64,000 nt of DNA from a virus. Its lineage: Duplodnaviria > Caudoviricetes. The position numbers were made by a program, and so were the translations under genes. The stretch spans positions 1-64,000 of the IMG/VR virus record IMGVR_UViG_3300012983_000039; one strand, 5' to 3'. A model generated the notes under the pieces. The model did not search any database and was not told the origin of the DNA. It was given only the letters and a program-made list of their open reading frames with translations. Shown here in pieces: positions 39,268 through 47,286 of the stretch (positions are counted from its first letter, which is position 1; the number at the start of each line of letters is the position of its first letter).

Positions 39268-40194
39268 TTGGCAAGTATATGTTTATATGATATTGATTTT
39301 TTACATGGAGCAAAGTTTTCAATTAATTTAGAATTAATGAAGATTTTTAATTATTATTATACACAAGGGCATAAAGTAAGGTTGGCAAAGAAAAATGATA
39401 CAGAAGAGTGGTATGACCAAAAAATCTTTTTTCTTCAAAATCCAAAATGTCGTTTTCCTCAAAAATTAAAGTTAACTGGTGATAATATTACTTTATATGG
39501 GTATGGTTTTTATAAAGACTTTAAAGATTTAAAAAAAGAAATCAAGGCTGTGCCGCCCAGCTTTATGGTTTATGATACTAGCTATGACCTAATAAAAAAT
39601 AAGAATATCTATGAAAAGATAAAAGACTCTTCTTTAATAAGAGTAGAAAACAGAGATTTCTCTTATTATAATCCAAATAAAAAAGCTTTATATGTAGCAG
39701 ATTACGATTTCTTTTCAGTTTCTAATAATTTTGAATTTTTAGAAGAATATTCTAAACATAATATAAGTTTTCTTTGGGGATTAAGAGCAAAAGATAAGGA
39801 TACTTTTTTAAAGCTATTTCGTTATTTACATAACGTAAATAGAAGAATTGTTATTGATTTTGATTATGATGTTAACTTCTTTAAAACTTATTACAATGAA
39901 AACATAATGTTTTTATTCGATAGTGAAAAAGAAAAAGATTTATTAAAAATAATTCAAATGATTTTATACGCAAAAAATAAAAATCAAATACTATTTTTAG
40001 AACAAAGCTCTAAACCTATTTTATCTAATTTATCTAAATGGAGTTCTTCAAAAGATAAAATTTCCTTTTATGATTATTGTATTAATAATAATAAAAAAGA
40101 TTGGTTTATTAATAACTTTACTGATAGAAAAGAATTAAGACTTTTACTTAGACAAAATCCACAGTTTTTTGATACTCAAAATCTTGACTTTTAA
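39268..40194 (+). CDS. hypothetical protein
   Basis: 308-aa ORF with GAGGTG RBS; N-terminal YDID..NLELMKI. Confidence 0.65.
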   Translation: MASICLYDIDFLHGAKFSINLELMKIFNYYYTQGHKVRLAKKNDTEEWYDQKIFFLQNPKCRFPQKLKLTGDNITLYGYGFYKDFKDLKKEIKAVPPSFMVYDTSYDLIKNKNIYEKIKDSSLIRVENRDFSYYNPNKKALYVADYDFFSVSNNFEFLEEYSKHNISFLWGLRAKDKDTFLKLFRYLHNVNRRIVIDFDYDVNFFKTYYNENIMFLFDSEKEKDLLKIIQMILYAKNKNQILFLEQSSKPILSNLSKWSSSKDKISFYDYCINNNKKDWFINNFTDRKELRLLLRQNPQFFDTQNLDF

Positions 40195-40212
40195 AGCAAA
40201 AAATGTTATAAT
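40184..40212 (+). promoter_or_regulatory. promoter
   Basis: TTGACT-17-TATAAT with TG. Confidence 0.75.
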
Positions 40213-40240
40213 TATATTATAAAATAAAGGAGGAAAAATT

Positions 40241-40423
40241 ATGGAAAAGAGTAGGTTAGAAACTTTGAAGTTTACTTACGAAAATAAAGAGAAGAAGCTA
40301 AAAGAATTAACTTCTAATCAAACCAATTTTGTCTTTAATAAAGAAATTAAAACGCTTATACTAGAAATGGAAAGTTTAAAAACAGAAATCGAAAGTATAG
40401 AGGCGGCAGAAGGAGGAAACTAA
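40241..40423 (+). CDS. small coiled-coil hypothetical protein
   Basis: AAGGAGG RBS. Confidence 0.6.
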   Translation: MEKSRLETLKFTYENKEKKLKELTSNQTNFVFNKEIKTLILEMESLKTEIESIEAAEGGN

Positions 40424-41182
40424 ATGATAGATAAGGTTAAATTAAATGACGGAGCTTTACTTATTCCATATGATAAATATGAAGAGTTTATGAGAGAGTT
40501 CTTAGCTATAGAAGAAGAAAAGGAAAAAGAAACTATAGAAATTATAAAAGATAATGTTGCGCCGCCCACTGATGAACCTATAGATTATTTCTCATTATTT
40601 TCTGACCCAGCTCTACAGATTAACGAAGAAAATACTATTGAAACTTTCTCGTTAGTAGAACGTTCAATTTTAATTAATGAAGAAATTGAACCTTATACCG
40701 CAACTTATGTTTTTAATCTTATAAGGTTCTGGAATACAATTGATGATATGGAAGATATACCAATTGAAGAAAGAAAACCGATTAAAATTTATATTGACAG
40801 TCCGGGTGGCGACTTGGACGCAACTTTCAGTATAATTGACTCGATTAAGTTAAGTAAAACACCAGTTTATACAATAACTTATGGCATAGGCCATAGCGGT
40901 GGCTTTTTTATTGGTATTGCCGGACACAAACGTTATGGTATGCCGCACTCCTCTTATATGTTCCATGAGGGTTGTGGACAGGGCGGCGGAGATGCTCATA
41001 AGTATATACAGAGTGTTAAATTTTATGAGAAACGTTTATCTCAGTTAAAAAAGCATACTCTTAAAAACACAAAAATATCAGAACAGAGCTATAATAAACA
41101 TCGTAAAGATGATTTGTGGCTAACAGCGGACGAAGCTTTAGAGCTTGGTATTATAGATGAAATACTAACTGAATTTATATAA
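40424..41182 (+). CDS. clpP: ClpP-like serine protease
   Basis: IYIDSPGG, GHSGG (Ser), MFHE (His), DLWLTADEALELGIIDEI. Confidence 0.85.
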   Translation: MIDKVKLNDGALLIPYDKYEEFMREFLAIEEEKEKETIEIIKDNVAPPTDEPIDYFSLFSDPALQINEENTIETFSLVERSILINEEIEPYTATYVFNLIRFWNTIDDMEDIPIEERKPIKIYIDSPGGDLDATFSIIDSIKLSKTPVYTITYGIGHSGGFFIGIAGHKRYGMPHSSYMFHEGCGQGGGDAHKYIQSVKFYEKRLSQLKKHTLKNTKISEQSYNKHRKDDLWLTADEALELGIIDEILTEFI

Positions 41183-41196
41183 AAAGGAGAAAAAAT

Positions 41197-41952
41197 ATGA
41201 AAGAAATGATAGATAATGTAGCAAATATAGAAATAGTAAATGATTTGCTGGAATTGCCAGATGAGCAGTTCCACGCAGCTTATTCAATGATGAAAGAAGA
41301 AATTGATAAAATGCTAACTTCAAAAAGAGCAGAAGCAAGTATAAGAGACAATATTCGTTTTGGTGAACTTGATATTGAAGAAGAAAGAGAAAACATAAAG
41401 AAGTCTAAAGAGAGTCTTAAATCTCTCGATTTTTCTACTGAAAAAGAAAATTTTCTTAAACAGCTTTTTGATACTAGTTTGAAAACAGTAGAAAAGGTTT
41501 ATGCTAATCCGATAGAAGAAGTTAAAGTTGATATAGTTCTTACAGATGAAAACGCTAAACTTCCTACTTACGCTCATTTTGACGATGCGGCGGCAGATAT
41601 ATATGCTTTAGAAGAAACAACAATTAATCCTAATGAAACTAAGATAGTAAGAACTGGATTGAAAATGGCAGTTCCGGTAGGATATAGAGTAGAAATTTAT
41701 CTTCGTTCTGGAGTGGGAGCTAAAACTAAACTTCGTTTAGCAAATGGAGTAGGACAGATAGATAGCTCTTATCGAGGAGAAATTGGCTTGATTATAGACA
41801 ATATTGGAGATACACCTTATACAATTGAAAAGGGTGAAAGAATATGTCAAATGATGATTGAGCCGGTATATCATATAGGATTTAATAAAGTAGAAACACT
41901 TAACTCAACAGAACGTGGGGAAGGCGGTTTCGGTAGCACAGGCAAGAGTTGA
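41197..41952 (+). CDS. dut: trimeric dUTPase with an N-terminal helical extension
   Basis: AAADI, RSG, GQIDSSYRGEI, RICQ, RGEGGFGSTG. Confidence 0.92.
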   Translation: MKEMIDNVANIEIVNDLLELPDEQFHAAYSMMKEEIDKMLTSKRAEASIRDNIRFGELDIEEERENIKKSKESLKSLDFSTEKENFLKQLFDTSLKTVEKVYANPIEEVKVDIVLTDENAKLPTYAHFDDAAADIYALEETTINPNETKIVRTGLKMAVPVGYRVEIYLRSGVGAKTKLRLANGVGQIDSSYRGEIGLIIDNIGDTPYTIEKGERICQMMIEPVYHIGFNKVETLNSTERGEGGFGSTGKS

Positions 41953-42689
41953 TTAGCTTGAAACTAAAATATGAAGAAATTAAAAAAACTATTGAAGAAG
42001 CAAATTGGACTTTAATTTCAGAAACCTATAAAAATTTGAACACAGATTTACAACTGCTTTGTCCGCTAGGTCATGAAGTATATATGACCTATGCTGACTG
42101 GCGTAATAAAGCTGAATGTTTAATATGTAAAAAATCTCCTATTGTTAAAATCAATGAAAAACCTAAAAAAAAGAAAGGTTATAGAATATTAGCTTTAGAC
42201 CAATCTACTAATACTACAGGTTGGAGTTTATTTGAAGATGGAAAGTTGTTGAATTATGGACAATGGACTTCTACCGGAAATGAAACAATACAGAAAATTA
42301 GCTGTGTAAAGACTTGGTTATCAACTATGATTGATAAACACCAACCAGATAAAATTATTTTAGAAGATATACAATTACAAAGTTATATTACTAGCAATAA
42401 CAATAGTGGAGATATGGTTTTAACATACAAAAAACTCGCCGCCCTACAAGGAGTTTTATGTAATTTCCTCTATGAAAATGGAATTTCATATACAATTGTG
42501 CCACCAGCGACTTGGAGAGAACACAGTAGTATCAAAGGAAAAACTAGAAACGATAAAAAGAAGAGCGCTCAAATTCGAGTTAAAAACATTTATGAAATAG
42601 ATGTTAATGTGGACGTAGCTGAAGCTATTCTGATTGGTGATTGGGCTACGGAAAAAATAAAAACAGTAGAAAAAGTAAGTTTCTACTAA
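41949..42689 (+). CDS. ruvC: RuvC-like Holliday junction resolvase with an N-terminal zinc finger
   Basis: CPLGH..CLIC; LALDQSTNTTGW, ILED, DVAEAILIG. Confidence 0.78.
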   Translation: MISLKLKYEEIKKTIEEANWTLISETYKNLNTDLQLLCPLGHEVYMTYADWRNKAECLICKKSPIVKINEKPKKKKGYRILALDQSTNTTGWSLFEDGKLLNYGQWTSTGNETIQKISCVKTWLSTMIDKHQPDKIILEDIQLQSYITSNNNSGDMVLTYKKLAALQGVLCNFLYENGISYTIVPPATWREHSSIKGKTRNDKKKSAQIRVKNIYEIDVNVDVAEAILIGDWATEKIKTVEKVSFY

Positions 42690-42696
42690 TAAAAAA

Positions 42697-42730
42697 GAAG
42701 AGGAGTAGATTAATTTCTACTCCTCTTTCT
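42697..42730. terminator. bidirectional terminator where the + and - strand blocks converge
   Basis: AGAGGAGTAGA..TCTACTCCTCT flanked by A and T runs. Confidence 0.8.
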
Positions 42731-43092
42731 TATTTTACTTTGTAAATATTCCATATATATCTGTCTGAACAATCGAAGGTATCATAAAGAGTTCCATTTA
42801 AAACGCAAGTAATATGACCGTTCATAGTAATAAGCCATCTACCTTTTAAATTTAATTTTAAAAAATCCTCTACCGTTTTAACTCTTTCTGTTGGATAAAA
42901 TTTTTCAAATCTTTCTGCTAGATATTCGTTAATGAAATCTACTTCCGTAAAAGTAATTCCTTTTCTACACCCATAATCAGATAGCATTTTATAGGTCTTG
43001 GTCCAACTCCAATTTAAAGCTAATGAAATTGCTCGAACAACACAGTCATTAACTTTTCTTCCTAAAGGATTGGCATTGTAATATTCCCACAT
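42730..43092 (-). CDS. putative papain-fold (C39-like) cysteine peptidase
   Basis: NDCVVRAIS (Cys), GHITCV (His), YDTFD (Asp) in catalytic-triad order. Confidence 0.55.
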   Translation of the reverse strand: MWEYYNANPLGRKVNDCVVRAISLALNWSWTKTYKMLSDYGCRKGITFTEVDFINEYLAERFEKFYPTERVKTVEDFLKLNLKGRWLITMNGHITCVLNGTLYDTFDCSDRYIWNIYKVK

Positions 43093-43637
43093 TAGATTTT
43101 TTTCATTTTTTCTAAATGTTTCCTTATTACTTCTTTTTCTTTAGGAGTTTCAGCAAAGTCAGCAAGAGACTCTACAAACATACAAACCGCCGCCATAGCC
43201 ATTTCAATACCATCTATCATACGGCTTTCACCGTCTCCATGGCGATATCTGTCTCGTCCTTCGTTATAGGCGTCCATACCTTCCATCATTCTTTCCATAT
43301 AACGTTCGGAGCGTTCGTCTAAATAAGGATAATTTCCATATCTACCTCTTGCTTCCCAACGACCATCGTTATAACCTCTTTCATTATAACCTCTGTCATA
43401 GCCCCTTTCATTATAACCATCTTCCATATATCTTCCTCTACTATCACGTCTTTGGAACATATTATAATCACCACCCTTTTCTTCATCAATTTCAGATTGA
43501 TAGTATTTAGCTTCTTTTATATCCTTGTAAATATCTATAAGCTTAAAAGTAGTTTCAAGATTAGAAGAACTTATCCCTTTTTCAGCTATAGCTCCTAATT
43601 CTTTTTCTACTTTTTCAAGCAACTTGTTCATATCCAT
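43092..43637 (-). CDS. hypothetical protein with RGYNE/RGYD repeats
   Basis: RRDSRGRYM, (RGYNE/D)n, helical termini. Confidence 0.7.
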   Translation of the reverse strand: MDMNKLLEKVEKELGAIAEKGISSSNLETTFKLIDIYKDIKEAKYYQSEIDEEKGGDYNMFQRRDSRGRYMEDGYNERGYDRGYNERGYNDGRWEARGRYGNYPYLDERSERYMERMMEGMDAYNEGRDRYRHGDGESRMIDGIEMAMAAVCMFVESLADFAETPKEKEVIRKHLEKMKKI

Positions 43638-43640
43638 TTC

Positions 43641-44036
43641 TTATCCCTCCTCTGTAGTAGTTTCAATAGGTAATGCTGAGGCGGCACGAGAACATCCAGA
43701 ACAACCTGTCTTAGCTAATAGTTTAAAAACTCCGCTTTGAATATCTGTATGAACTTTTACAGGATAAATTTTTCTAGGGTAAATCTGACAAGCATTTACA
43801 TTAGAACAATTACAATTTACTAAAGGATAAGCTGTTGTATCTGTTCCAATTGTAATTGATACTGTCGCCGCAATTGTTGTTTCCTCTGGAATTTCCTGAG
43901 CAATTAGTAAACAATATCTTTCGCAATTACCATAAGAACCTTCTGGCAAATTAATAGTTAATACTCCATCGGCAAAAGTAATTGCTTGTGAGAGAACAAG
44001 TCTCTCACAAACACATTTAACACTAGGACAACTCAT
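43641..44036 (-). CDS. Cys-rich beta-sandwich-like hypothetical protein
   Basis: 11 Cys in 131 aa; GGAGG RBS. Confidence 0.7.
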   Translation of the reverse strand: MSCPSVKCVCERLVLSQAITFADGVLTINLPEGSYGNCERYCLLIAQEIPEETTIAATVSITIGTDTTAYPLVNCNCSNVNACQIYPRKIYPVKVHTDIQSGVFKLLAKTGCSGCSRAASALPIETTTEEG

Positions 44037-44049
44037 ATGTTATCCCTCC

Positions 44050-44946
44050 TTAGCAGCAAGCGCCGCAACCGTTATTTAAAAAAGCATTAACTGGAAAAGT
44101 CTGATAAGGACTCATTACCGGATAAGCTGGCTTAGGACAAGGCTGAAGTTGTTCAATTAAAGCTCTTGTCTGTGAGTTCTGAGAAAGCTGGAATTGAGCA
44201 GATTGAAGTTCTGTTCTAAGCTTATCCATTTCAGACTGAACAAGATGATTGATTATTCTATCTGTGTTTCTATCAGCATTAGTAATAATATCACAAGTCT
44301 GTTGAGCTAAAGCATACTTAATATTTTCTTGTCCTCTTTCAAGATTGCAACAACAGCTTGCTAACTGATTAGCTAATGAATTGAAGCCAGCCTGTGTATT
44401 AAATCTGCTTTCCATAAGTCCCTGTTTAGTTTCACAGCAACAATCTTTGATGTTGTAGTTAGTCTGCGCTATAGCGGAATTAATTCCATTAAAGCCTTGA
44501 CACAGTGTTGACTGTAAACCATTAAAACCTTGAAGATTTGCTCTATCTGCCGCACACATAGCTTGCTGGAACTGAGTGCCAAGATTTGTTATACCGAGAT
44601 TTACGCTATAAAAACCATCACACAGACCTCTTTCAAGACCTCTCTGTCCATTATCTAACTGATTAAAGTTAAAAGCATCAGTTAAACTTTGCTGAGTTGC
44701 CGGAACACAACAAGCATTATAGCCAAAGCTGCCAAAGCCACCAGTTGGAACTACTACTGTATTTGTGCCGCCATCGCAACCACAACCATTTCCACCGTTA
44801 TTGCCCCAGCCACGACCATTCATTCCTAAGAATAATATAAGAACGATAATCCACCAACCAGAGCCATCACCAAAACCATTATTCGAACCATTGCCACCAT
44901 TTCTGAGCGCCAATGCGTCCGCCACCGTAAGACCTTTTTCTTCCAT
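44050..44946 (-). CDS. Gly/Asn/Cys-rich protein with a hydrophobic segment and long coiled coil
   Basis: GGAGG RBS before MEEKG; GWWIIVLILFLG; two CCC motifs; heptad-like Q/N-rich helix; C-terminal GCGACC. Confidence 0.75.
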   Translation of the reverse strand: MEEKGLTVADALALRNGGNGSNNGFGDGSGWWIIVLILFLGMNGRGWGNNGGNGCGCDGGTNTVVVPTGGFGSFGYNACCVPATQQSLTDAFNFNQLDNGQRGLERGLCDGFYSVNLGITNLGTQFQQAMCAADRANLQGFNGLQSTLCQGFNGINSAIAQTNYNIKDCCCETKQGLMESRFNTQAGFNSLANQLASCCCNLERGQENIKYALAQQTCDIITNADRNTDRIINHLVQSEMDKLRTELQSAQFQLSQNSQTRALIEQLQPCPKPAYPVMSPYQTFPVNAFLNNGCGACC

Positions 44947-44974
44947 AAATAAAACCTCCATTAAAATATATTTA

Positions 44975-45202
44975 TTACTTTAATAGACTTAGAAAATTAT
45001 TTAACTCCTGACCAAAGTTCTGTCCTCTTTGTCTAAAAAAGTTTTCAGCTATTGAATTGATACTATTAGTATCTCCTTTTTCGGCATATTGAATAAGTTC
45101 ATTAATCATAGGATCATTTATATTATTATTTTTAATATAAGACATCACTATTTGCTGAGGGTTTTGCCCTTTAACTAAATTAATAAAATCCATATTTATC
45201 AT
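44975..45202 (-). CDS. small hypothetical protein (GQNPQQ type)
   Basis: Coupled to neighbouring genes in the operon. Confidence 0.65.
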   Translation of the reverse strand: MINMDFINLVKGQNPQQIVMSYIKNNNINDPMINELIQYAEKGDTNSINSIAENFFRQRGQNFGQELNNFLSLLK

Positions 45203-45621
45203 AAATTCCAATCACCCTTTCCTTTTGAAGTGTTTTGTATATCAGATATCTTTTGTTCTATCTGACTTAATCGTTTTTCATATTGTTGGAGCTGAGAAAC
45301 TATTTCATTTTCTTCTTGTTTTACTTCCTCTTGTGTTGACTGTGTTTTGTTTATATCCAAGGGAGCAATTTTATAAGCCCAAAATAAAGGGTTTCCATTC
45401 TGCATGGTTTTAATATACATTACTCCTTCCTGTAGACATAAAGCTACTGAAATTCCCGCTCCCACCGGAACATTAGCCACCTCTAAAGTTGAGTTAATAT
45501 TATATACATTACCTTGAGGTTGGGGAAATAAAGGCTGAACATTCTGTTGAAATTGCGCCGCCCCTTGTGAAAAACACATATTTTGATTTTGACCTTGATT
45601 TGTATTATAATTGTAGGACAT
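45199..45621 (-). CDS. Gln/Asn-rich hypothetical protein with a C-terminal coiled coil
   Basis: GAGGTG RBS; YIKT..NG.P motif. Confidence 0.7.
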   Translation of the reverse strand: MSYNYNTNQGQNQNMCFSQGAAQFQQNVQPLFPQPQGNVYNINSTLEVANVPVGAGISVALCLQEGVMYIKTMQNGNPLFWAYKIAPLDINKTQSTQEEVKQEENEIVSQLQQYEKRLSQIEQKISDIQNTSKGKGDWNL

Positions 45622-45678
45622 TTTATCACCTCACTTATCCTTTCACCTAATAGTGAATTTTAAAAACCAAAAATTAAA

Positions 45679-45750
45679 AAAATTGGATAAACATAAGGAA
45701 AGTTCTATTTTTTAGACAATTTCATTTTCCTTATATTTATCCATTTTTTA
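45679..45750 (-). terminator. long imperfect hairpin separating tail genes from the six-gene module
   Basis: TGGATAAATATAAGGAAA..TTTCCTTATGTTTATCCA plus T-run on the minus strand. Confidence 0.6.
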
Positions 45751-46131: not shown

Positions 46132-47286
46132 TTAAAATTGAGAAATTAAAATTTTATTTTCTGGATAATTGCTTATATTAGAAACAGCGTCCGAGGCTGT
46201 AAAAAAACCTGTGTTCGCAATACAACCTATTAACCTAGTTGGTCCAGAATTAATTGTAATATGGCTTCTTATTTCTCTATTCACAATTTTATTTTCCAAT
46301 TCAGTTTCAATTGAACGATAAGGACCATAACCGTATCCAGAGTATCCGAAGTTTTGAAAAGGATAACAGCTTGCTATTTGATAGAATTTTCCCTGTAGAT
46401 TATAAATATTTCCATTCATTAAGTTATTATACACATAATCTTTTATTTCTGTTGGGTAGCTATATGAAGATGAAAGAGTTGGATATCCTCTGCCGCCCCA
46501 ACCAGAAAAACCACCATCTCTTTTTAAAGTTGTTATAATTGATTCACCATTACGTCCATGAAGAAAATAAACTGAACGTAAGAGTTTCGCATATACTCCA
46601 AAATTCATTAATTGAGTTTGTTTATCTCCTATGTCTCCCAATTCATCTCTACATAGTTGACACATTACAGATAATTCATAATCTGTAATTAAATTTTCAT
46701 CAAGTTTTTGAGAATAATAATGTTCCATTTTTGAAGTTGGTATCAAAGATGTTTCAACTGGAAAATTTCCATTGACTTCCTTAACTTTTAAATATCTAAA
46801 AAGTTTATTTAAAAAGCCACATGGATTAGAAGGAGGAGTTAATCTAAACTCCTCTCTATCCGTCCATATTCTACTTACATCAGAACCATACCAAGTTCCT
46901 TTTCTTATCTGTAAATGTAAATGAGGTCCAGAACTATAACCGGTATTACCAGAAGTTCCTATAATCTGTCCATTTTTAACTATATCGCCTTCATTCACAT
47001 CAACTGTTTTGAGATGCATGTATGTAGCATAGTAGGTTTCTCCTAAATTTTGAAATTCAATTACAATACAATTGCCCGTTTCCGTAGTGCTTCCGCCATA
47101 CCAAGTATTATAATTTCTATCTTTTCGAGTTAAGAAAATTTTTCCGTCTGTAATCGCATAAATTGGAGTGCCTTCTGGAATGGCAAAATCAACAGAGTCT
47201 GTTCCATCGTGTGAATGGTAGCCCGGCACATCATCATCATTAACAAAACGTCCATTTTGAATTGGAAAACTCCATATGTGTTTCAT
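46132..47286 (-). CDS. M23 family peptidoglycan peptidase (virion- or lysis-associated)
   Basis: H..DSVDFA, YMHL, GNTGYSSGPHLH. Confidence 0.88.
   Translation of the reverse strand: MKHIWSFPIQNGRFVNDDDVPGYHSHDGTDSVDFAIPEGTPIYAITDGKIFLTRKDRNYNTWYGGSTTETGNCIVIEFQNLGETYYATYMHLKTVDVNEGDIVKNGQIIGTSGNTGYSSGPHLHLQIRKGTWYGSDVSRIWTDREEFRLTPPSNPCGFLNKLFRYLKVKEVNGNFPVETSLIPTSKMEHYYSQKLDENLITDYELSVMCQLCRDELGDIGDKQTQLMNFGVYAKLLRSVYFLHGRNGESIITTLKRDGGFSGWGGRGYPTLSSSYSYPTEIKDYVYNNLMNGNIYNLQGKFYQIASCYPFQNFGYSGYGYGPYRSIETELENKIVNREIRSHITINSGPTRLIGCIANTGFFTASDAVSNISNYPENKILISQF

Follow-up and report, generated by a model that had tools for sequence, protein, structure and literature searches.

A six-gene cassette at positions 42730-45621 (minus strand) of the IMG/VR virus record IMGVR_UViG_3300012983_000039, a tailed phage (Caudoviricetes), is a real, mobile, and strongly conserved unit. 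The window analyzed here is the first 64 kb (64,000 nucleotides) of this 91.3-kb phage contig, which has a G+C content of ~30%, and the cassette genes, here termed A to F in the order of transcription, stand at the end of its late strand. The gene set is not a chance grouping, as it recurs in dozens of divergent phage contigs. The cassette is best explained as neither a part of the core virion nor a canonical holin-endolysin pair, and we tentatively favor its interpretation as a mobile accessory unit of tailed phages with a role directed at the envelope as infection ends.

An earlier note on this DNA, made from the letters alone, had described six tightly coupled genes between a long hairpin and a bidirectional terminator, and the open reading frames (ORFs), intergenic gaps, and folding energies agree with that description, including the coordinates of the six ORFs. 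On the minus strand, the cassette follows tail genes (encoding 1826, 681, and 1883 aa), an M23 peptidase gene, and a 121-aa ORF. The gaps at the successive junctions from A/B to E/F are -4, 28, 13, 3, and -1 nt; the stop codon of A and the ATG of B overlap as ATGA, and one base is common to E and F (TAATG). Because the ATG at 45202 overlaps the stop codon of A, gene B probably encodes 75 aa from this position (44975..45202, minus strand) rather than the 78 aa listed for it. The ATG of gene C lies 8 nt behind a GGAGG motif and yields 298 aa, the same as in C homologues, while an alternative 303-aa ORF begins within the Shine-Dalgarno sequence itself. The upstream boundary is a hairpin with a U-run (45676..45743, minus strand) between the 121-aa ORF and gene A, whose 18-bp AT-rich stem (~45684-45743) has a folding energy of -23.8 kcal/mol (z = -6.65; 0 of 200 shuffles were as stable). 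The downstream boundary is a bidirectional intrinsic terminator (42697..42728, both strands) common to the cassette and a convergent RuvC-like gene, with a 13-bp stem of -21.9 kcal/mol on either strand (z = -5.9 and -6.2). The 130-nt spacer ahead of the cassette has no conspicuous sigma-70-type promoter.

The conservation of the gene neighborhood was examined in 96 C-bearing loci from viral, genome-bin, and phage collections, which were scanned with a hidden Markov model (HMM) of each protein (L-numbers below name these loci). In the 67 loci with at least 3.5 kb on either side of C, where a partner was counted if found within 4 kb of C, gene A is present in 66, a gene at the D position in 64, and E and F in 59 each. 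Many of these loci come from metagenome bins and are mutually related, and the safer figures are therefore those collapsed to 18 C lineages at 60% identity in C: 17 for A, 15 for D, 13 for E, and 11 for F. Two gene orders occur: A-B-C-D-E-F in the clade of the window, on contigs of 80-180 kb, and F-A-B-C-D-E on many contigs of ~40 kb. Among annotated phages, seven records have F at a distance of 1-2.2 kb upstream of C. KPP23, crAss cr115_1, and Dulem virus 36 carry C without F anywhere in the genome, and PAK_P1 and Bacillus phage Nate carry F without C. Within the clade of the window, the cassette proteins have median identities of 50-59%, compared with 48% for ClpP, 48% for RuvC, 40% for dUTPase, and 32% for the M23 peptidase. 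In gut Firmicutes phages, C travels as a unit with five fixed partners, and this unit is better conserved than the neighboring enzymes. The recurrence of such cassettes in gut Firmicutes phages without an assigned function, which the earlier note had suggested, is supported by this survey and by the placement of several cassette proteins in PHROGs without a function.

The core of the cassette is gene C (44050..44946, minus strand; 298 aa). Its product begins with an acidic helix, M-E-E-x-G-L-S/T-V-A-D-A-L-A-L, which is nearly invariant in the family alignment, followed by a Gly/Asn linker and a hydrophobic core. A second Gly-rich stretch leads into an N/Q-rich helical rod, and the protein closes with a Pro/Cys-rich tail. 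The hydrophobic core (44818..44856, minus strand; residues 31-43, WWIIVLILFLGMN) has Gly-rich flanks and is a putative single membrane anchor; residues 31-42 read WWIIVLILFLGM, and across the family the hydrophobicity is kept while the sequence varies. Behind the core is a conserved CC-x-P-A-T...D-A-F-N-F-N block. The rod varies in length by whole G-F-N-type units, and the C-terminal part has a canonical heptad stretch and then a P-x-P-K-P-A-Y...S-P-Y...G-C-G-C tail, which ends as GCGACC in this window. The protein contains 18 Cys, including CC at 79-80 and CCC at 169-171 and 198-200. The first CCC motif (44434..44442, minus strand) has the family signature [S/D/N]-CCC-[E/D/N], which is retained by the crAss and Pseudomonas homologues, while C200 is the only invariant residue of the second (44347..44355, minus strand). 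These cysteines could bind metal as readily as form disulfides.

Charge distribution suggests an orientation for the putative anchor. Among 229 C relatives, the N-tail (median 32 aa) contains 268 K+R and 867 D+E, and the 20 residues on the C-terminal side of the hydrophobic core are neutral. Because of this acidic N-tail and neutral C-side, C is predicted to be an N-out, C-in single-pass protein, with the N-tail probably outside and the rod probably in the cytoplasm.

C belongs to phrog_16490, a PHROG without a function (1.1e-23), and its family is widespread. A word-based search found 2,067 relatives, and a profile search of 1.84 billion representatives gave 1,738 clusters (50% identity) at E ≤ 1e-3. 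The family spans phages of Clostridia, Bacteroidota, and Proteobacteria, with homologues in crAss-like, Pseudomonas, and Vibrio phages; no C homologue was found in the cultured crAss phages with proteomics (crAss001, crAss002, DAC15). In the natural fusion P0503, the C anchor gives way to an N-terminal part of 290 aa and to a charged coiled coil that matches tail-fiber PHROGs, and D and a DUF7841 gene are retained downstream. C has one hydrophobic segment and matches no holin family in Pfam or PHROG, and no lipobox-bearing ORF of the kind expected for a spanin partner occurs within or beside C.

Gene D (43641..44036, minus strand) encodes an all-beta protein of 131 aa with 10 Cys and is located directly downstream of C at every locus examined. 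Its AlphaFold model (predicted local distance difference test score, pLDDT, 78) is an eight-strand beta sandwich resembling the bead or knob domains of trimeric tail fibers. Among solved structures, the sole standout match is bead III (residues 242-340) of the Pa193 tail fiber gp47, with Z 5.1 over 93 aligned residues and a runner-up at Z 3.2-3.4; in the solved entry, this bead is itself an AlphaFold model fitted to density. In BFVD, the model matches its own family first and then many long fiber proteins at E 1e-4 to 1e-3, including tail-fiber, collagen-like, coiled-stalk, and hyaluronidase-fiber proteins. One BFVD entry, A0A8S5LXP6 from a crAss-like phage, has DUF7841 fused to a D-like domain. 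By comparison with gp47 and with these BFVD entries, the modeled structure of D is of the virion-fiber type. The only PHROG match is weak (phrog_31654, E 0.004). D matches occur in 10 annotated phage records, at least 9 of which also carry C. The D slot is occupied by one of two families, D1 or D2 (the latter typified by Ceridwen QHJ73769), and their relationship as distant homologues was unsupported (hhalign probability 1%); D1 has a median identity of 58% in the clade of the window.

The BFVD fibers that carry a D-like domain in a single chain, the P0503 fusion, and the exchangeable D slot suggest that C and D together build a rod and knob in two pieces. The features that the earlier note had listed for the other products are likewise present, namely a Q/N-rich A, a CCC-bearing C of 298 aa, a Cys-rich beta protein D, and an E with RGYNE repeats. 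Its description of C as a membrane-inserting fiber holds in part: C has the appearance of a hydrophobically anchored rod and D has a fiber-type fold, while the disulfide cross-linking that was part of the same proposal is unproven.

Gene F (42730..43092, minus strand; 120 aa) encodes a predicted minimal papain-fold enzyme of the Cys-His-Asp type. The triad of Cys17 (43042-43044), His93 (42814-42816), and Asp104 (42781-42783) is invariant across 39 F sequences, as are N6, N8, R12, and D16. In the AlphaFold model (pLDDT 88), C17 opens a helix (17-26), H93 starts a strand (93-98), and D104 ends another (101-104). An exhaustive structural aligner returned almost exclusively papain-fold enzymes (Z 6.3 to 4), and this near-exclusivity supports the assignment of F as a minimal papain-fold (clan CA) enzyme at the level of a modeled structure. 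PeiR ranks first, followed by the C39 domains of PCAT1, ComA, and LahT and by Josephins (Z ~6), and staphopains, Tae3, Tae4, and Tse1 are further matches. With regard to the NlpC/P60-Tae-type peptidoglycan amidases, Tae4 is the sole Pfam match of F, below threshold (E 0.018, 15.5 bits against a cut-off of 27), and the structural scores for Tae4, Tse1, and Tae3 (Z 4.0-5.1) are lower than those for the C39 domains and Josephins. F has no Pfam C39 match at E ≤ 1 and belongs to phrog_3754, a PHROG without a function (1.1e-23). The peptidase-like fold that had been read from the sequence is therefore supported by the model, the invariant triad, and the structural matches, and the substrate of F may be a peptide, an isopeptide, or peptidoglycan.

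The proposal that F matures the 298-aa C protein fared less well. Seven of the 18 C lineages have no F nearby, and each gene occurs in genomes that lack the other. The N-terminal helix of C is present in Dulem 36, which has no F, and is missing in Ceridwen, which has F. In addition, the GG after this helix is not conserved, and the family has no conserved cleavage motif. A double-glycine leader cleaved by F was rejected as a candidate on the same grounds, as the presence of the leader does not follow that of F.

The remaining three proteins are of low complexity. Gene A (45199..45621, minus strand) encodes 140 aa, of which 37 are Q or N, and comprises a disordered Q/N-rich N-terminus, a small beta-rich middle with an invariant Y-x-K...G, and a C-terminal coiled-coil helix; a Pfam scan gave coiled-coil noise only. 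It can be aligned with its positional counterparts in Dulem 36, CPD1, Ceridwen (phrog_21718), bajarodcaudo 2, and Dulem 35, which are homologous to it. The possibility that A carries a ubiquitin-like GG end for a deubiquitinase-like F was rejected, as the C-termini of A proteins are not conserved in this way. The HMM of the small Q/N/M-rich B finds counterparts in bajarodcaudo 2 (2.8e-27) and Dulem 36 (4.6e-7), with weak matches to the ORF immediately ahead of C in L042, L041, and L007. Each of the seven F-first phages that were inspected, namely six loci and Ceridwen, has an ORF of 66-76 aa at this position. Gene E (43092..43637, minus strand; 181 aa) encodes RGYNE/RGYD repeats in a low-complexity center rich in R, G, Y, N, E, and D between helical N- and C-terminal parts. 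E belongs to phrog_28802, a PHROG without a function (1.5e-16), and its HMM matches L042 (1e-45), L002 (5e-43), L040, and Ceridwen. At times the E slot is filled instead by a DUF7841 protein or a phrog_17879 protein, and DUF7841 stands at the E position beside C and D in crAss-like phages (L009:2741-3376, which is crAss cr115_1 gp42, and L045:2247-2687). Some DUF7841 proteins have an RG/Y-rich tail. E itself as a DUF7841 protein was unsupported (hhalign probability 0.1%); only the position and the RG/Y-rich tail are common to the two.

The genomic setting of the cassette varies among phages. In this window, it follows a tail fiber and the M23 peptidase, and in Dulem 36 it follows a receptor-binding protein. 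In Ceridwen, the order is endolysin, a small protein with a single transmembrane (TM) segment, a small helix-turn-helix (HTH) protein, and then the cassette. L058 and L074 have an endolysin/amidase, a coiled-coil/TM protein, a single-TM protein, a few enzymes, and an HTH protein before the cassette, with recombination genes downstream, and the same pair of TM proteins and the HTH protein are located upstream of the cassette in L087 and L095. In crAss cr115_1, a holin gene and then a LysB-like gene precede DUF7841, which is followed by C and D. A role as the lysis cassette of the phage itself is weakened by the endolysin/amidase and TM proteins upstream in L058 and L074 and by the endolysin and one small TM protein upstream in Ceridwen.

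A late, envelope-directed role is suggested by three features together, namely the frequent adjacency to lysis genes, the presence of a putative membrane anchor, and that of a hydrolase. C would be held in the cytoplasmic membrane by its one Gly-flanked hydrophobic segment, with the short acidic N-tail probably outside, and would form a parallel, probably trimeric, N/Q-rich coiled-coil rod in which layers of Cys may add stability through metal or disulfides. D could then act as an exchangeable tail-fiber-type beta domain that caps the Pro/Cys-rich C-terminal tail of C, with A, B, and E as low-complexity coiled-coil partners or assembly factors. F, as a C39-like cysteine hydrolase that is frequent but dispensable, might trim or process a cassette component or an envelope substrate. 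The partners have no visible export signal, and this, together with the charge bias of C, indicates that the complex is probably assembled on the inner face of the membrane, from which it may act on the host envelope late in infection and aid envelope breakdown or progeny release. Such a role would parallel that of XhlA and XepA beside the PBSX holin and lysin.

Several observations weigh against this interpretation. No cassette protein is homologous to any lysis protein, and the cassette is not needed for basic lysis, since phages of the Ceridwen type carry an endolysin and small TM proteins. The hydrophobic core of C, the putative membrane anchor, has just 12-13 residues, and the trimeric state and the C-D contact are likewise putative. 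The structural match of D is modest, and its target is a fitted model; furthermore, a fiber-type knob within the cytoplasm has no obvious target. The setting also differs in some phages. In bajarodcaudo virus 2 and Dulem virus 35, the cassette lies between a portal/minor-capsid gene and the major capsid gene, and in KPP23 a distant homologue of C is the first gene of a divergent operon that runs toward DNA-metabolism genes.

The main rival is an accessory virion fiber, in which C and D would form a trimeric rod and knob on the head, neck, or tail, A, B, and E would be assembly chaperones, F would be a maturation protease, and the hydrophobic, Gly-flanked N-terminus of C would either be buried and serve for attachment or act at infection as a membrane-active tip. 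The bead fold of D with its many BFVD fiber matches, the shaft-like rod of C (rich in N, Q, S, and T, low in charge, and changing length by units), and the fiber-like N-terminal half of P0503 all fit this reading. So does the location of the cassette, which is on the late strand behind the tail fibers here, behind the gene of a receptor-binding protein in Dulem 36, and, in two small phages, in the interval from the portal to the capsid gene. However, the cassette moves as a unit among unlike phages, from Firmicutes phage genomes of 40 kb to those of 90-170 kb, with C and D also in crAss-like phages, and an addition to the virion would require a suitable docking site on every phage type. Moreover, in L058, L074, L087, and L095 it stands behind lysis and non-structural genes (metallophosphatase, HTH) and beside recombination genes, no chain of the solved phage atlases matches it in sequence, and the distant C homologue of KPP23, ORF074, is absent from the nine virion proteins found by mass spectrometry in that phage. 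We consider a virion fiber unlikely, if still a serious contender. An anchored complex that blocks competing phages, or that hides receptors and thereby spares progeny from loss on debris, with D as the exchangeable specificity domain, seems improbable. The single-pass anchor with its conserved exposed N-terminal helix and the accessory slot between lysis and early genes in small phages would suit such a function, and a D slot filled by two unrelated beta proteins is what a specificity module would show. Against it stand the six genes including an enzyme, where known exclusion proteins are single small proteins, and also the good conservation of D1, which is not hypervariable, the lack of an export signal in D, and the lack of any PADLOC match. 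To much the same low degree, it is conceivable that the cassette encodes a novel intracellular structure made by the phage, in which a membrane-tethered, Cys-stabilized C-D rod recruits self-associating partners, namely the prion-like A and B and the RG/Y-rich E or DUF7841, into an inner-face scaffold or condensate for a late step (assembly, packaging, or release), which F would tune by proteolysis.

The model put forward in the earlier note, that F cleaves the leader of C to yield a disulfide-linked, membrane-inserting fiber or coat protecting virions or spores, is very improbable in our estimation, as is a variant in which F is a transglutaminase cross-linking Q-rich partners. The papain/transglutaminase-type triad and the top rank of PeiR agree with it, as do the Q/N-rich A, B, and C, the Cys-rich C and D, and the proximity of F to C in 11 of 18 lineages. 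Nevertheless, C-D and F each occur without the other, the leader does not co-vary with F, and no cleavage motif is conserved. Disulfide chemistry is doubtful because the partners have no export signals, and the charge bias points to a cytoplasmic rod, which together speak against a disulfide-crosslinked coat. Protection of spores or against oxygen is unlikely given that C homologues are found in crAss-like, Pseudomonas, and Vibrio phages, with non-sporulating Gram-negative hosts among those infected; C is not restricted to spore-forming hosts, and no Pfam or NCBIfam match to spore coat, exosporium, or transglutaminase (Tgl) families was obtained. Least credible of all is a bacteriocin-like toxin, in which a C39-type F would remove a double-glycine leader from C and thereby free a membrane-active peptide or protein rich in Gly. 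In its favor, F has some of its best fold matches in C39 domains, and the C of this window does have L-x-x-x-D-A-L-A-L-R-N-G-G before its Gly-rich hydrophobic stretch. Yet the GG is not conserved, the hydrophobic spacing departs from the -4/-7/-12 rule, F reaches no C39 Pfam model, neither an ABC transporter nor an immunity gene accompanies the cassette, and C is a rod protein of 300 aa rather than a peptide.

Comparison with known systems gives partial likenesses. The accessory lysis proteins XhlA and XepA/YomS of PBSX and SPbeta and the single-TM holin T of T4 combine a single-pass protein bearing a large coiled-coil or soluble domain with a beta-sandwich protein, beside tail-fiber and lysin genes. 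However, Pfam and PHROG searches showed no homology, XepA is not among the fold matches of D, the topology of C is probably the reverse of that of XhlA, and the cassette exceeds these systems in size and encodes an enzyme as well. Two-component spanins (Rz/Rz1, LysB/LysC) likewise have an N-terminal anchor, a long coiled coil with conserved Cys, and a Pro-rich C-terminus, and C stands beside a holin and a LysB-like gene in crAss cr115_1. The cassette differs from spanins in having no lipoprotein partner gene and in the cytoplasmic rod indicated by charge bias, and most of its carriers seem to be gut phages of the Clostridia type, which infect hosts without an outer membrane.

The C39 domains of PCAT, ComA, and LahT share the fold of F (Z 6.0-6.2, with ~100 of 120 residues aligned) and are of similar size (125-150 aa against the 120 aa of F). 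The order and spacing of Cys, His, and Asp in F are close to those of C39 domains such as that of ComA, and the C39 oxyanion Gln, located six residues before the Cys, corresponds to Gly at residue 11 of F. Unlike C39 domains, F does not match the Pfam C39 model and is free-standing, no ABC transporter gene occurs within the cassette or its flanks, and there is no conserved double-glycine substrate nearby. Relative to the stalk-plus-knob fibers of Pa193 gp47 and BFVD, C and D resemble a fiber split in two genes, with the bead/knob fold in D and the repeat-wise length in the rod of C; they depart from trimeric phage fibers in that C has a membrane-type anchor in place of a virion attachment domain and CC/CCC motifs, and the cassette usually lies outside the tail module. 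The likeness to Tgl-GerQ, CotY/ExsY, and CdeC is compositional only (Q-, Cys-, and R/G/Y-rich proteins by a Cys-His-Asp enzyme), with no family match and with C homologues in phages of non-sporulating hosts.

Database searches with the cassette proteins were otherwise negative. No Pfam or NCBIfam model was reached by A to F, none matches an annotated PHROG, and a PADLOC scan of the six proteins and two relatives matched no family at E ≤ 0.01. Sequence and profile searches of the PDB with A, C, D, and F, including the chains of solved phage atlases, gave no match. Foldseek with the F model found nothing significant, and Foldseek of the F and D models against the PDB, the ESM Atlas with C and D, and blastn against phages gave nothing useful. 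A full-text literature search found no study of the C family. The novelty of the cassette rests on these negative searches, and it may yet prove to be a lysis accessory of an unusual kind or an add-on fiber. C is among the larger phage protein families without an assigned function. Its function, once found, would annotate thousands of gut-phage genes and could reveal an unrecognized envelope step of infection. Butyrivibrio virus Ceridwen and Clostridium perfringens phage CPD1 are cultured carriers, which makes direct testing possible.

The genes adjacent to the cassette show some further regularities. The TM pair of F-first phages (L058:3307-3864, L074:2913-3433, L087:1779-2442, L095:2478-3128) comprises a coiled coil with a C-terminal TM segment and a second protein with CxxC motifs and one central TM segment, without a Pfam match. 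The pair lies behind an endolysin-type gene in L058, L074, and L095 and is probably the lysis set of these phages. In 19 of 34 F-first loci, the gene immediately ahead of F (e.g., L058:4100-4351, L074:4452-4667, L087:3573-3785, L095:4254-4469, and L041:5049-5270) encodes an HTH protein of 70-83 aa that resembles sigma-70 region 4 (sub-threshold in Pfam) and may be a cassette-linked regulator. In the window, the M23 peptidase (46132-47286, minus strand; 384 aa, Pfam 1.1e-23) occupies an endolysin-like position, and its C-terminal part of 250 aa has no family assignment; the late strand of the whole 91-kb genome has no other holin-like (small multi-TM) ORF. The convergent arm (39268-42689, plus strand) ends with a 308-aa ORF, ClpP, a dUTPase/dCTP-deaminase-like gene, and the RuvC-like resolvase, which has a Zn-finger-like stretch at its N-terminus. 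The same set flanks the cassette in relatives.

The cassette is also a target of mobile DNA, namely homing endonucleases and introns. In L027, C is split after an N-terminal exon by an insert without an ORF (L027:5630-6000), and in L028 the insert in C carries an HNH-type ORF of 156 aa (L028:5130-6000); Rfam found no intron model at gathering score in these intron-bearing relatives. An ORF of ~345 aa with Zn-finger repeats lies between C and D in L021 (L021:7047-8093) and L015 (L015:6935-7963), and HNH/AP2-like genes are located beside C in CPD1 (L007:4116-4739) and Ceridwen (L041:7929-8723). In close relatives (L003-L006, L020-L026, L034, L035, L038, L052, L053, L055, and L056), the cassette genes are open only if TAG is translated as Gln, while those of the window are open under table 11. 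In-frame TAG codons per 1000 aa number 10 in the RuvC-like gene, 11 in the tail-fiber C-terminus, and 10.9 in gene A, and hence in both arms. The use of TAG-to-Gln recoding as a marker of late expression was rejected, as in-frame TAGs are equally common in the convergent RuvC-like gene.

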